Positions 56,632 through 59,735 of a stretch of 64,000 bases of DNA are shown in pieces. A program made the position numbers and the translations under genes. Each line of letters starts with the position of its first letter. The stretch's first letter is position 1. The notes below the pieces were generated by a model. That model had not been told where the DNA came from and made no database searches. It saw only the letters and a list, made by a program, of their open reading frames with translations. The DNA lies in NCBI RefSeq assembly GCF_024700885.2, contig NZ_CP117016.1; one strand, given 5' to 3'. This DNA is from Escherichia coli (lineage in GTDB: Bacteria > Pseudomonadota > Gammaproteobacteria > Enterobacterales > Enterobacteriaceae).

Positions 56632-58860
56632 ATGTACACACAGACCCTGTATGAGTTAAGTCAGGAGGCTGAACGCCTGTTACAGCTTTCTCGCCAACAG
56701 TTGCAGTTACTGGAAAAAATGCCTCTCTCTGTACCCGGAGACGATGCGCCACAACTGGCTTTACCCTGGAGTCAGCCTAATATCGCCGAACGTCACGCGA
56801 TGCTGAATAATGAGTTGCGTAAAATTTCCCGACTGGAAATGGTGCTGGCGATTGTCGGTACCATGAAAGCAGGGAAATCAACCACCATTAATGCCATTGT
56901 TGGTACGGAGGTTTTGCCTAATCGTAATCGCCCAATGACTGCGCTGCCGACGCTTATTCGCCATACGCCCGGGCAAAAGGAACCGGTACTGCATTTTTCA
57001 CATGTCGCGCCAATCGATTGTTTAATTCAAAAATTACAACAGCGCCTGCGTGATTGCGATATTAAGCATCTGACCGATGTGCTGGAAATAGATAAAGATA
57101 TGCGTGCGCTTATGCAGCGGATCGAAAATGGCGTCGCTTTCGAAAAATATTATCTGGGTGCCCAGCCTATTTTTCATTGTCTGAAAAGTTTGAATGATTT
57201 GGTGCGACTGGCGAAGGCGCTGGACGTCGATTTTCCTTTTTCTGCTTACGCCGCCATTGAGCATATTCCCGTGATTGCAGTGGAGTTTGTCCATCTAGCG
57301 GGGCTGGAGAGTTATCCCGGTCAGTTGACGTTACTGGATACCCCTGGGCCAAATGAAGCCGGGCAACCGCATCTGCAAAAAATGCTTAACCAGCAGCTGG
57401 CACGCGCCTCGGCGGTATTGGCGGTGCTGGATTATACGCAACTGAAATCGATCTCCGATGAAGAGGTCCGTGAGGCGATTTTGGCGGTGGGGCAATCGGT
57501 GCCGCTGTATGTGCTGGTCAATAAGTTCGATCAACAGGATCGTAACAGTGACGACGCCGACCAGGTGCGGGCACTGATTTCCGGGACGCTGATGAAAGGC
57601 TGTATTACGCCACAGCAGATATTTCCGGTGTCGTCGATGTGGGGCTACCTGGCGAATCGGGCGCGCAATGAGTTAGCCAACAACGGTAAGTTACCACCGC
57701 CAGAGCAACAACGCTGGGTGGAAGATTTTGCCCATGCCGCGCTCGGCAGGCGCTGGCGTCATGCCGATCTGGCGGACCTCGAACATATTCGTCATGCTGC
57801 CGATCAGTTGTGGGAAGATTCGCTGTTCGCCCAGCCAATTCAGGCGTTGCTTCATGCCGCTTACGCTAACGCCTCGTTGTATGCTCTGCGATCTGCCGCG
57901 CATAAACTGTTGAATTACGCGCAGCAGGCGCGGGAATACCTGGATTTTCGTGCGCACGGGTTAAACGTCGCTTGTGAACAATTGCGGCAAAATATCCATC
58001 AGATCGAAGAAAGTTTGCAGCTATTGCAACTCAATCAGGCGCAGGTGAGCGGCGAGATTAAACATGAAATCGAGCTGGCCCTGACCTCCGCCAACCACTT
58101 TCTGCGTCAACAGCAAGATGCGCTGAATGCGCAGTTAGCCGCCTTGTTTCAGGATGATTCGGAGCCGTTAAGCGAGATTCGTACCCGCTGTGAGACACTG
58201 TTACAGACGGCGCAGAACACCATCAGTCGCGACTTTACGCTGCGTTTTGCCGAGCTGGAATCCACCCTTTGCCGGGTGTTAACCGATGTTATTCGCCCCA
58301 TTGAGCAACAAATCAAAATGGAATTGAGCGAGTCAGGGTTTCGTCCTGGGTTTCATTTTCCTGTTTTTCACGGCGCAGTTCCCCACTTCAACACTCGCCA
58401 GCTGTTCAGTGAAGTCATTTCGCGCCAGGAAGCAACGGACGAGCAGAGCACGCGTTTAGGCGTTGTGCGTGAGACTTTTTCGCGCTGGTTGAATCAGCCT
58501 GACTGGGGACGGGGAAATGAGAAATCCCCGACAGAGACGGTTGATTACAGTGTGTTGCAACGAGCATTAAGCGCAGAAGTCGATCTTTATTGCCAACAAA
58601 TGGCTAAAGTTCTGGCAGAGCAGGTCGATGAATCTGTTACGGCAGGCATGAATACTTTTTTCGCTGAGTTCGCTTCATGTTTGACGGAATTACAGACGCG
58701 TTTACGCGAAAGCCTGGCTCTGCGTCAACAAAATGAATCGGTGGTCAGGCTGATGCAGCAGCAATTGCAGCAGGCTGTGATGACTCACAGCTGGATTTAC
58801 ACCGACGCTCAGCTGTTACGCGATGATATTCAAACACTTTTCACGGCAGAACGATATTGA
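56632..58860 (+). CDS. crfC: Bacterial dynamin-like GTPase CrfC (YjdA)
   Basis: 742-aa ORF with GTPase G1 motif GTMKAGKST near residue 75 followed by long helical regions; matches CrfC. Confidence 0.9.
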   Translation: MYTQTLYELSQEAERLLQLSRQQLQLLEKMPLSVPGDDAPQLALPWSQPNIAERHAMLNNELRKISRLEMVLAIVGTMKAGKSTTINAIVGTEVLPNRNRPMTALPTLIRHTPGQKEPVLHFSHVAPIDCLIQKLQQRLRDCDIKHLTDVLEIDKDMRALMQRIENGVAFEKYYLGAQPIFHCLKSLNDLVRLAKALDVDFPFSAYAAIEHIPVIAVEFVHLAGLESYPGQLTLLDTPGPNEAGQPHLQKMLNQQLARASAVLAVLDYTQLKSISDEEVREAILAVGQSVPLYVLVNKFDQQDRNSDDADQVRALISGTLMKGCITPQQIFPVSSMWGYLANRARNELANNGKLPPPEQQRWVEDFAHAALGRRWRHADLADLEHIRHAADQLWEDSLFAQPIQALLHAAYANASLYALRSAAHKLLNYAQQAREYLDFRAHGLNVACEQLRQNIHQIEESLQLLQLNQAQVSGEIKHEIELALTSANHFLRQQQDALNAQLAALFQDDSEPLSEIRTRCETLLQTAQNTISRDFTLRFAELESTLCRVLTDVIRPIEQQIKMELSESGFRPGFHFPVFHGAVPHFNTRQLFSEVISRQEATDEQSTRLGVVRETFSRWLNQPDWGRGNEKSPTETVDYSVLQRALSAEVDLYCQQMAKVLAEQVDESVTAGMNTFFAEFASCLTELQTRLRESLALRQQNESVVRLMQQQLQQAVMTHSWIYTDAQLLRDDIQTLFTAERY

Positions 58861-59735
58861 CCAAGACGTTACTGGACGGCCCCGGTCGCGTGCTGGAGTC
58901 GGTTCATCCGCGCTTTTTAGTGGATCTGGCGCAGGGCGATGATGCCCGCCATCCACAAGCCCATCAGCAGCAGTTTCGTGAACGACTGATGCAGGAACTT
59001 CTTGCGCGTGTGCAGCTTCAGGCATGGACGAACGGCGGGATGTTAAATGCGCCGCTTAGCCTGCGTCTGACATTGGTGGAAAAACTGGCGTCGATGCTGG
59101 ATCCCGGTCATCTGGCGCTGACGCAGATCGCGCAGCATCTGGCGCTGCTGCAAAAAATGGATCACCGCCAGCACTCTGCTTTCCCGGAGCTCCCCCAGCA
59201 AATTGCCGCCTTGTATGAGTGGTTTTCAGCCCGTTGTCGCTGGAAGGAAAAGGCGTTAACGCAACGAGGCCTACTGGTGCAGGCGGGTGATCAGAGCGAG
59301 CAAATTTTTACCCGCTGGCGTGCTGGGGCGTATAACGCCTGGTCGTTGCCTGGGCGCTGCTTTATCGTTCTGGAGGAGTTGCGCTGGGGTGCATTTGGCG
59401 ATGCCTGCCGTCTGGGAAGCCCGCAAGCGGTGGCGTTGTTGCTGGGTGATTTGCGCGTGAAAGCGACACAACATTTGGCAGAGAGTATCAATGCGGCACC
59501 GACCACGCGTCACTATTACCATCAGTGGTTTGCCTCTTCGACCATTCCGACGGGCGGGGATCATGCTGATTTTTTAAGTTGGCTGGGAAAGTGGTCCACG
59601 GCAGATAAACAACCCGTTTGCTGGTCAGTGACCCAACGCTGGCGAACTGTCGCACTGGGGATGCCACGACTCTGTTCAGCGCAGCGTCTGGCGGGGGCAA
59701 TGGTCGAGGAAATCTTCTCTGTAAATTTGGTGTAA
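58857..59735 (+). CDS. yjcZ: Uncharacterized protein YjcZ, partner of CrfC
   Basis: 292-aa ORF starting at TTG overlapping the crfC stop by 4 nt (translational coupling). Confidence 0.8.
   Translation: MTKTLLDGPGRVLESVHPRFLVDLAQGDDARHPQAHQQQFRERLMQELLARVQLQAWTNGGMLNAPLSLRLTLVEKLASMLDPGHLALTQIAQHLALLQKMDHRQHSAFPELPQQIAALYEWFSARCRWKEKALTQRGLLVQAGDQSEQIFTRWRAGAYNAWSLPGRCFIVLEELRWGAFGDACRLGSPQAVALLLGDLRVKATQHLAESINAAPTTRHYYHQWFASSTIPTGGDHADFLSWLGKWSTADKQPVCWSVTQRWRTVALGMPRLCSAQRLAGAMVEEIFSVNLV

Follow-up and report, generated by a model that had tools for sequence, protein, structure and literature searches.

The crfC–rdcB locus in the 64,000-nt stretch of Escherichia coli DNA analysed here (the window) is very probably the core Enterobacteriaceae operon crfC(rdcA/yjdA)–rdcB(yjcZ), an activator of the diguanylate cyclase DgcE whose expression has two layers. 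crfC (also named yjdA or rdcA; 56632..58860) starts with ATG and encodes a soluble dynamin-like GTPase of 742 aa, and rdcB (yjcZ; 58857..59735) starts with TTG and encodes the soluble, all-α, 292-aa partner protein of RdcA; both genes and all other features described below are on the + strand. RefSeq calls the two genes crfC and rdcB at identical coordinates. CrfC matched the NCBIfam equivalog NF007368 (clamp-binding protein CrfC) over residues 1–742 of 742 with 1590.4 bits, compared to the curated cut-off of 1146 bits, and the Pfam family Dynamin_N with 67 bits (cut-off 27), and RdcB gave a full-length match to Pfam PF13990 YjcZ with 473.9 bits (cut-off 27). The gene names, the protein sizes and the dynamin-like nature of CrfC proposed in a first-pass annotation of this DNA agreed with the ORF list, with these family models and with RefSeq, as did its statement that the locus was a known gene pair rather than a new system. 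The pair is already known, and the interpretation of the locus needs no revision.

Both genes belong to the E. coli core genome, being found in 5417 of 5426 complete genomes with 95–100% DNA identity for the pair; the window DNA, which is from a strain other than K-12, is 100% identical to that of strain 1190 and others. Across the 80 species-level loci that served for comparison of the pair, the overlap and the promoter, a crfC homologue was located directly upstream of rdcB in every case, and the gene order yjdM|crfC–rdcB|proP was conserved. In genera other than Escherichia, rdcB and proP were separated by an additional gene, an unrelated permease on the opposite strand. The RdcB N-terminus was kept across genera from residue 1, indicating that the annotated start position is genuine.

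The first-pass annotation regarded the role of the pair as only partly understood and functionally under-explored, a view superseded by published work on the activation of DgcE by RdcA and RdcB (PMC6510439, PMC13031359). The two proteins activate this cyclase through direct contact with MASE1, one of its domains, and activation depends on GTP hydrolysis (Pfiffer 2019, PMC6510439). In the same study rdcA and rdcB phenocopied dgcE and showed epistasis with it, and two-hybrid assays detected RdcA–RdcB and RdcA–MASE1 interactions. The GTPase-dead T103D variant of RdcA did not dock and was inactive, in contrast to the active K82A variant (PMC6510439); both K82 and T103 are present in CrfC of the window. 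[quoted passage not shown] We assign the window pair to this system by orthology and obligate pairing, as its probable counterpart to the same genes of E. coli K-12 (PMC6510439), the window proteins being orthologues with no substantive difference. The published work shows that c-di-GMP synthesis by DgcE requires both proteins and that RdcA self-associates, binds RdcB and docks on the MASE1 domain, which is embedded in the membrane (PMC6510439). Nucleotide-free RdcA is taken to be the activator form, with falling GTP at the entry into stationary phase as the proposed signal, a GTP-sensing model based on genetics with two point mutants. In E. coli, the locus ties the master c-di-GMP switch of biofilm formation to the flagellar regulon as well as to cellular GTP.

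In CrfC, the Dynamin_N match covered residues 72–277 of the GTPase domain (56845..57462) and contained the G1 (GTMKAGKS, residues 76–83), G2 (T103) and G3 (DTPG, residues 236–239) motifs; G4 (NKFD, residues 297–300, 57520–57531) followed just downstream of the match, and all four motifs were invariant in 25 homologues. GTP hydrolysis and nucleotide-dependent self-assembly have been reported for CrfC (Ozaki 2013, as cited in PMC6510439). The AF2 model (pLDDT 78) showed long helices at residues 400–445, 448–505, 513–567, 639–700 and 702–741, corresponding to neck/trunk bundles, and its best PDB matches in Foldseek were BDLP (2j69, E 2.9e-13), IniA, SynDLP, mitofusins, LeoA and Cj-DLP1/2, those to BDLP, IniA and SynDLP being full-length with a probability of 1.00. 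Among the dynamin-like proteins, CrfC/RdcA belongs to the BDLP/mitofusin class, as a soluble GTPase. The bacterial members of this group (BDLP of Nostoc, IniA, SynDLP, LeoA, Cj-DLP1/2 and DynA) share with CrfC a G domain carrying G1–G4 and the long helical neck/trunk bundles (Foldseek E values of the matches from 1e-13 to 1e-8), although the sequence similarity was limited to the P-loop region. Unlike them, CrfC has no hydrophobic paddle or transmembrane hairpin, it shares its operon with a helical protein that is not a GTPase instead of with a second dynamin-like protein, and it is known to activate a signalling enzyme as opposed to driving membrane fusion or fission. No segment of transmembrane grade was found in CrfC, the maximal 19-residue Kyte–Doolittle hydropathy being 1.49, and neither hydropathy nor the AF2 model revealed a paddle, transmembrane hairpin, PH-like or comparable membrane-binding element of dynamins, in keeping with the description of RdcA as soluble (PMC6510439). 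The position of the BDLP paddle is matched in CrfC by a disordered aromatic loop at the trunk tip, between long trunk helices (residues 568–636, 58333..58539) with pLDDT below 50 and conserved F570, W619 and W625, which may be a candidate docking surface for DgcE MASE1.

For RdcB, no fold or sequence relative was found in the PDB, and no catalytic-looking motif was found in the protein. RdcB carries the family signature GRC(Y/F)..LEEL.WG.FG, and W154, L175, G178, G181, W224 and P253 were invariant across the YjcZ family, which is nearly always joined to a dynamin-like GTPase. RdcB would act as an adaptor or co-factor for its dynamin-like partner and not as an enzyme, and its C-terminal segment (residues ~228–270), which is conserved yet was modelled poorly, may fold on RdcA.

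A different primary role for CrfC has been described, namely that of a replisome-associated nucleoid-partition factor (Ozaki 2013; Taniguchi 2019, PMC6374313) whose oligomers would bind the β sliding clamp through the motif 41-QLALP and tether sister forks, making rdcB incidental. The protein is the same as that of the window, where QLALPW is present with the motif at residues 41–45 (56752..56766; Ozaki 2013 as cited in PMC6374313), the NCBI family bears the name "clamp-binding protein CrfC", and, as summarized in PMC6374313, the Q41A and deletion mutants gave anucleate cells and CrfC formed foci at nucleoid poles. Conservation argues against this role as the primary one. The key Gln, Q41, which is needed for clamp binding, was essentially specific to E. 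coli itself and was not conserved in orthologues, which retained the hydrophobic positions of the motif: other Escherichia species carry PLTLP at this position, and most other genera (63/79) a conserved PLHF-type sequence such as VLPLHF. The motif also adjoins an Escherichia-specific deletion of 8 aa in CrfC. Furthermore, clamp binding leaves the strict pairing with rdcB in 80/80 loci unexplained, and Pfiffer et al. consider it a moonlighting activity (PMC6510439). We therefore find a primarily replisome-associated CrfC improbable; clamp binding through 41-QLALP, judged from its distribution among orthologues, appears to be a lineage-specific extra function of E. coli CrfC. The partition and signalling roles of the protein are not mutually exclusive.

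With activation of DgcE as the preferred reading of the operon, the first of its two expression layers would reside at the junction of the genes. The crfC and rdcB frames overlap by 4 nt at TTGA (58857..58860), where the rdcB TTG (58857–58859) lies over the crfC TGA (58858–58860) in the junction sequence CGATATTGACC; the overlap, which the first-pass annotation had noted, was read directly, both ORFs are real, and we infer that the overlap is a translational-coupling site. The same 4-nt stop/start overlap was present in 76 of the 80 species, as ATGA everywhere except Escherichia (TTGA), and the remaining four loci had either a gap of no more than 2 nt or a 1-nt overlap (TAAnnATG or TGATG); retention at this level is far above the chance expectation. 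A search of the 20 nt upstream of rdcB in the 80 locus sequences revealed no canonical Shine-Dalgarno element, and crfC–rdcB thus combines a conserved overlap with the lack of a strong independent ribosome-binding site, as expected of a coupled pair. Ribosomes that terminate on crfC may re-initiate at rdcB, which would tie the synthesis of RdcB to that of RdcA. Concealment of the rdcB start in RNA structure was rejected: no conserved structure occluding the start was found (MFE z = −1.15, consensus −3.4 kcal/mol, no covariation).

The second layer is transcription of rdcB together with the flagellar regulon from an intragenic σ28 (FliA) promoter, known from work of others and present here. The promoter, TAAAGTTC-N11-GTCGATGAA (58605..58632), is identical to the motif mapped inside yjdA by ChIP-seq and RNA-seq (Fitzgerald 2014, PMC4183435), and the window site TAAAGTTC-N11-GTCGATGA matches the σ28 pattern TAAAGTTT-N11-GCCGATAA; the rdcB transcription start is expected near position 58640. 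The promoter was retained at −252 in 62 of the 80 loci, and its four codons ranked 1, 2, 3 and 5 of 48 in synonymous conservation (Mann–Whitney p = 6.5e-4), whereas Trabulsiella has the same residues at the site encoded by different codons. Deletion of fliA reduced yjcZ RNA from 52 to 1 (PMC4183435), which suggests that in motile cells the internal promoter gives rise to most rdcB mRNA, and translation of such transcripts cannot be coupled to that of full-length crfC. Coupling is therefore not the sole route to rdcB expression, and the "translationally coupled module" proposed in the first-pass annotation covers only half of how the pair is expressed. A similar arrangement is known for the FliA promoter of motA, a "duon" that likewise lies near the 3′ end of the preceding gene, flhC, drives the gene downstream and restricts codon choice in its host (Fitzgerald et al., bioRxiv 10.1101/188474). 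That paper called only the flhC case broadly conserved; the yjdA-internal promoter is also conserved wherever the operon exists (62 of 80 species) and adds another clear case in which the promoter of the next gene constrains a coding sequence.

The same data allow for the alternative that TTGA is a by-product of genome compactness and that nearly all RdcB comes from the σ28 transcript by independent initiation at TTG, with no stoichiometric coupling. The loss of yjcZ RNA in ΔfliA cells, the conservation and synonymous constraint of the promoter, and the failure to find a conserved start-occluding structure all speak for it, but they have to be set against the persistence of the 4-nt overlap in species whose proteins are only 53–65% identical and against an rdcB start that has no good upstream Shine-Dalgarno. 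The weak TTG of Escherichia also fits re-initiation more easily than de novo initiation, and an in-frame AUG (M673 at 58648, 96% conserved) located ~8 nt past the expected TSS could feed ribosomes to the junction even on the internal transcript. We consider the by-product explanation a genuine possibility, albeit clearly the less favored one, and retain re-initiation at the overlap as the first expression layer.

As for crfC itself, yjdA RNA also fell in ΔfliA cells, from 111 to 11, although no FliA peak was located upstream of yjdA (Fitzgerald 2014, PMC4183435). The yjdM–crfC intergenic region (56231..56631) is AT-rich (31.7% GC), contains blocks conserved across genera, and putatively includes the crfC promoter and 5′ UTR. 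One conserved block, GTAATTATAAAAGCCGAAAA (56549..56568), contains a −10-like TATAAA and GCCGAAAA, which matches the σ28 −10 element at 7 of 8 positions but has a poor −35. The full σ28 pattern had no match in the intergenic region, and a canonical σ28 promoter upstream of crfC, for which GCCGAAAA at 56561 was the candidate, was rejected; the literature calls the upstream prediction wrong. The crfC Shine-Dalgarno region TAAGGAAG (56616..56623) is located within a 5′-UTR block, AAATTTGCGTTAAGGAA, that is near-invariant across genera. At the other end of the operon, a perfect 9-bp inverted repeat, TTGGTGTAA...TTACACCAA (59727..59752), spans the rdcB stop codon; it was not called in the terminator scan and no U-run follows it, and it is not a canonical terminator. 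The search for Rfam families in the region 55800–60100 returned a single match, a naRNA4/REP element outside the operon.

The first-pass annotation also raised the idea that the pair acts in membrane remodelling or limits phage-induced lysis; comparable dynamin systems would be B. subtilis DynA and Eleos/LeoABC. The BDLP-like fold of CrfC lends this idea some plausibility, and CrfC gave weak partial PADLOC hits to LeoBC and LeoA (23–24 bits, E ~1e-5 to 6e-6), but these scores reflect similarity of the G domain only, and CrfC is without the hydrophobic paddle. RdcB gave no PADLOC hit and is not the second dynamin-like protein that Eleos (LeoA/LeoBC) would require, both dynamin-like genes of that system not being found in the core pair; membership of the pair in a defence system was rejected on this evidence. 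A patatin or other effector gene next to the core pair was likewise rejected, none being present within 6 kb at any of the 80 loci, and no phage-borne homologue of the pair was found in the phage collection. Regulation by σ28, the known c-di-GMP signalling phenotype and the fixed syntenic, non-island site occupied in 5417 of 5426 genomes all point away from defence. What remains in favor is that paralogous dynamin–RdcB-like–patatin operons reside on mobile islands next to genes of defence type and show induction in a lysogen; the dynamin–phage idea is a better fit to these accessory operons than to the core pair, for which we hold a membrane-remodelling or anti-phage function to be very unlikely.

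The core crfC–rdcB clade is one narrow branch within the much more diverse YjcZ family, which comprises 263 clusters. Outside the core clade, YjcZ-family genes were located in mobile trios of dynamin, YjcZ and patatin phospholipase genes, which were found in ~45% of E. coli genomes, where they occupy CP4-44-like islands and plasmids; WP_000544720, WP_000203550 and WP_000102631 of strain MS 200-1 are one such trio. [quoted passage not shown] Of the distant YjcZ clusters in which the next gene downstream could be read, 8 of 8 had an overlapping or abutting patatin gene. Tentatively, and with less than even confidence, the core pair may be viewed as a domesticated, effector-less descendant of such a mobile module, its switch having been rewired onto DgcE and placed under σ28 in Enterobacteriaceae. 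Under domestication, the YjcZ protein would make an effector responsive to the nucleotide state of its dynamin-like partner; in the trios this effector would be a membrane-degrading phospholipase. The trios, for which PADLOC (v2.0.0, 2023) returned no system, would then be candidates for a role in abortive infection or competition. Being common and mobile, the patatin trios are the place to examine the dynamin-and-phage idea; their neighbours were often toxin–antitoxin, NERD–UvrD or MoxR–VWA genes.

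The two open reading frames proposed in the first-pass annotation were found exactly at the positions it had given, crfC (yjdA, rdcA) at 56632..58860 (+) with an ATG start and a 742-aa product, and rdcB (yjcZ) at 58857..59735 (+) with a TTG start and a 292-aa product. For the first product, the NCBIfam equivalog "clamp-binding protein CrfC" returned 1590 bits (cut-off 1146), with a Pfam Dynamin_N match at residues 72-277, and the second scored 474 bits against Pfam PF13990 "YjcZ-like"; both are genuine genes of an already known operon. Among 5426 complete E. coli genomes, megablast located the segment 56300-59800 in 5417, nearly always as a single chromosomal copy with the genes annotated crfC and rdcB ("diguanylate cyclase regulator RdcB family protein"). 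Flanking the pair are the phn operon, yjdN and yjdM on the minus strand, while proP, pmrR and pmrB-basR-eptA lie downstream. This is the 93-min region, a well-known part of the E. coli chromosome. A REP-type element lies between yjdN and yjdM at 55800-55877 and matches Rfam naRNA4 at 92 bits, above the gathering score of 59.5. Spanning the rdcB stop codon is a perfect 9-bp inverted repeat (59727-59752, +) without a following U-tract, and a simple scan of the rdcB-proP interval detected no canonical terminator.

The pair had been called functionally under-explored, but its function is already in the literature. YjdA and YjcZ were renamed RdcA and RdcB by Pfiffer, Sarenko, Possling and Hengge (PLoS Genet 2019, PMC6510439), who reported that deletion of either gene phenocopied deletion of dgcE, which encodes a diguanylate cyclase, in macrocolony matrix, CsgD level, csgB::lacZ activity and cellular c-di-GMP, with non-additive effects. 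Two-hybrid partners of RdcA were RdcA itself, RdcB and the membrane-embedded MASE1 domain of DgcE, and the only partner of RdcB was RdcA; the K82A variant of RdcA complemented, and the hydrolysis-dead T103D variant neither complemented nor bound DgcE (PMC6510439). In their model, RdcA/RdcB in its nucleotide-free state docks onto a pair of DgcE molecules when GTP falls at stationary-phase entry. Independently of that work, a genome-wide FRET-to-Sort transposon screen recovered rdcA, rdcB and dgcE as low-c-di-GMP mutants, together with ynjH, which is likewise under FliA control and has no known function, and for which a strong association with the RdcA/RdcB-DgcE system was reported (Nat Commun 2026, PMC13031359). 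The first-pass interpretation was right in part, but left out both the DgcE function and a promoter internal to crfC.

This σ28 (FliA) promoter coincides at 58605-58632 (+), with zero mismatches, with the motif TAAAGTTCTGGCAGAGCAGGTCGATGAA mapped by ChIP-seq within yjdA (Fitzgerald et al., PLoS Genet 2014, PMC4183435), 252 nt upstream of the rdcB start. [quoted passage not shown] Among 80 species-level loci recovered from reference genomes, TAAAG[CT]TT-N11-GTCGAT occurred at exactly −252 in 61, and one more Escherichia locus carried the window's TAAAGTTC variant, so that 62 of 80 species retain the promoter in place. Because the CrfC protein over the promoter is also conserved (K-A/V-L...Q-V-D), synonymous codon entropy was compared over the last 100 crfC codons. 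The four codons lying wholly within the −35/−10 elements ranked 1, 2, 3 and 5 of 48 conserved degenerate codons, with a mean normalised entropy of 0.26 versus 0.72 for the remaining codons (one-sided Mann-Whitney p = 6.5e-4), and the two Ala codons in the spacer were free. Trabulsiella encodes the identical amino acids by other codons (GCG CTG ... GTG GAT) and has lost the motif. Given this synonymous constraint and the Trabulsiella codon swap, the promoter is under selection in its own right. Set beside the motA promoter inside flhC (Fitzgerald et al.), it is a second "duon" of that kind, a coding sequence that also holds the promoter of the next gene.

The yjdA RNA itself fell from 111 to 11 in ΔfliA (PMC4183435), a 10-fold FliA dependence, although the region upstream of crfC contained no canonical σ28 site. 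Across genera with ~60% protein identity, the conserved blocks at 56549-56631 (+) comprised GTAATTATAAAAGCCGAAA and an almost invariant 5′ UTR (AAATAAAAGTAAT..AAATTTGCGTTAAGGAA) ending in the Shine-Dalgarno sequence TAAGGAA. Their conservation points to a promoter not yet mapped, or to post-transcriptional control at this site.

The proposed overlap of the TTG start with the crfC stop was read directly at the junction, ...CGATATTGACC..., as a 4-nt TTGA at 58857-58860 (TTG 58857-58859, TGA 58858-58860). A crfC homologue (53-92% identity) ended at the rdcB start in 80/80 loci. The junction was ATGA in 72 loci, including three with an ATG one codon further upstream, TTGA in four Escherichia loci, among them the E. 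coli reference locus (L001), TAAnnATG in four and TGATG in one. Across the window and loci L002-L081, rdcB started with ATG in all non-Escherichia genera examined versus TTG in 4/4 Escherichia loci, and the 4-nt overlap was maintained with either codon. The RdcB N-terminus could be aligned from residue 1 across genera, so this start position is real. No good Shine-Dalgarno sequence was present in the 20 nt upstream of the start, folding gave no evidence of an occluding RNA structure at the junction (z = −1.15), and the alignment fold contained no covariation there. Translational coupling by termination and re-initiation is thus a reasonable inference. Coupling would be only one route to rdcB expression, the internal σ28 promoter being another. 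On the σ28 transcript, coupling would be possible only via ribosomes starting at an internal in-frame AUG, for which the candidate is M673 (58648-58650), 96% conserved and ~8 nt past the expected transcription start.

The dynamin-like nature of CrfC, as first annotated, was borne out by the Dynamin_N match and by the modelled structure. Motifs G1 (residues 76-83), G2 (T103), G3 (236-239) and G4 (297-300) were invariant, and sequence similarity to PDB entries was confined to the P-loop surroundings (BDLP 2j68, E 1.8e-6). An AF2 model (25 homologues, pLDDT 78) had five very long helices after the G domain, and its top Foldseek matches, BDLP (E 2.9e-13), IniA, SynDLP, mitofusin 1/2, LeoA and Cj-DLP1/2, place CrfC in the BDLP/mitofusin class. 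The hydrophobic paddle was absent, no 19-residue window reaching transmembrane hydropathy; the trunk-tip position is taken by a low-confidence loop with invariant aromatics (568-636), a candidate MASE1-docking surface by inference only. RdcB was modelled as all-alpha (pLDDT 71, pTM 0.72), with its most conserved segment, ~228-270 (...PVCWSVTQ...GMPRLCSA), at pLDDT < 50, which would fit folding on RdcA.

In a separate line of work (Ozaki 2013; Taniguchi 2019, PMC6374313), this protein was described under the name CrfC as a beta-clamp binder, through 41-QLALP, that helps nucleoids to partition. Escherichia CrfC carries two lineage-specific deletions, one of 8 aa following residue 35 (56734-56766, residues 35-45) and one of 36 aa following residue 512 (about 58165-58170), and the clamp motif adjoins the first. 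Q41 was found in E. coli, with PLTLP in other Escherichia species and a conserved PLHF-type motif (e.g. VLPLHF) in most other genera (63 of 79). Gln41 is essentially E. coli-specific, which supports clamp binding as a recent add-on, with some doubt left by the conserved xLxLxF pattern.

A word-indexed search returned only 230 relatives, Enterobacteriaceae throughout. The yjdM-proP interval is the constant site of the core pair, which occurs in Escherichia, Citrobacter, Enterobacter, Kosakonia, Phytobacter, Leclercia, Lelliottia, Trabulsiella, Yokenella, Pluralibacter, Superficieibacter, Atlantibacter, Franconibacter and others; no Salmonella or Klebsiella chromosome was among the matches listed. 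In non-Escherichia genera the rdcB-proP interval also holds an oppositely oriented permease gene of 332 aa (L021 6935-7933 (−) and equivalents), which Escherichia lacks.

An exhaustive profile search resolved the YjcZ family into 263 clusters at 50% identity. Ten distant members were looked up, and in 8/8 clusters with a readable downstream gene a patatin-like phospholipase gene overlapped or abutted the YjcZ gene; the gene ahead usually encoded a dynamin-like protein of 740-830 aa, and HEPN/MNT, PIN/MazE, MoxR-VWA, NERD-UvrD and IS elements were common neighbours. Such a trio is accessory in E. coli, in 2445-2615 of 5426 complete genomes (about 45%), on CP4-44-like islands, and related pairs occur on 44 plasmids; Klebsiella, Enterobacter and E. 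coli plasmids carry such pairs. At L086 7361-11714 (E. coli MS 200-1) and L087 it encodes a 794-aa dynamin, a 301-aa RdcB-like protein and a 356-aa patatin phospholipase, linked by 4-nt overlaps; identity of the first two to CrfC and RdcB is 33% and 31%. PADLOC assigned no system to this trio. A 2026 transcriptome paper (PMC12922286) reported strong induction of the trio operons in a Kapi1 lysogen and regarded them as putative defence systems. The link to phage raised in the first-pass annotation would thus plausibly fit the paralogous trio, not the core pair. It is conceivable, though we think it improbable, that domestication of the mobile dynamin-YjcZ-patatin module gave rise to the core pair, with RdcB-family proteins as the coupling subunit. 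Two variants were seen at L085 8001-9599 and L093 413-1747: one, which lacks an upstream dynamin gene, has a 532-aa DUF3944+YjcZ fusion ahead of the patatin gene, and the other a 444-aa protein, without Pfam match or CrfC similarity, in the dynamin position.
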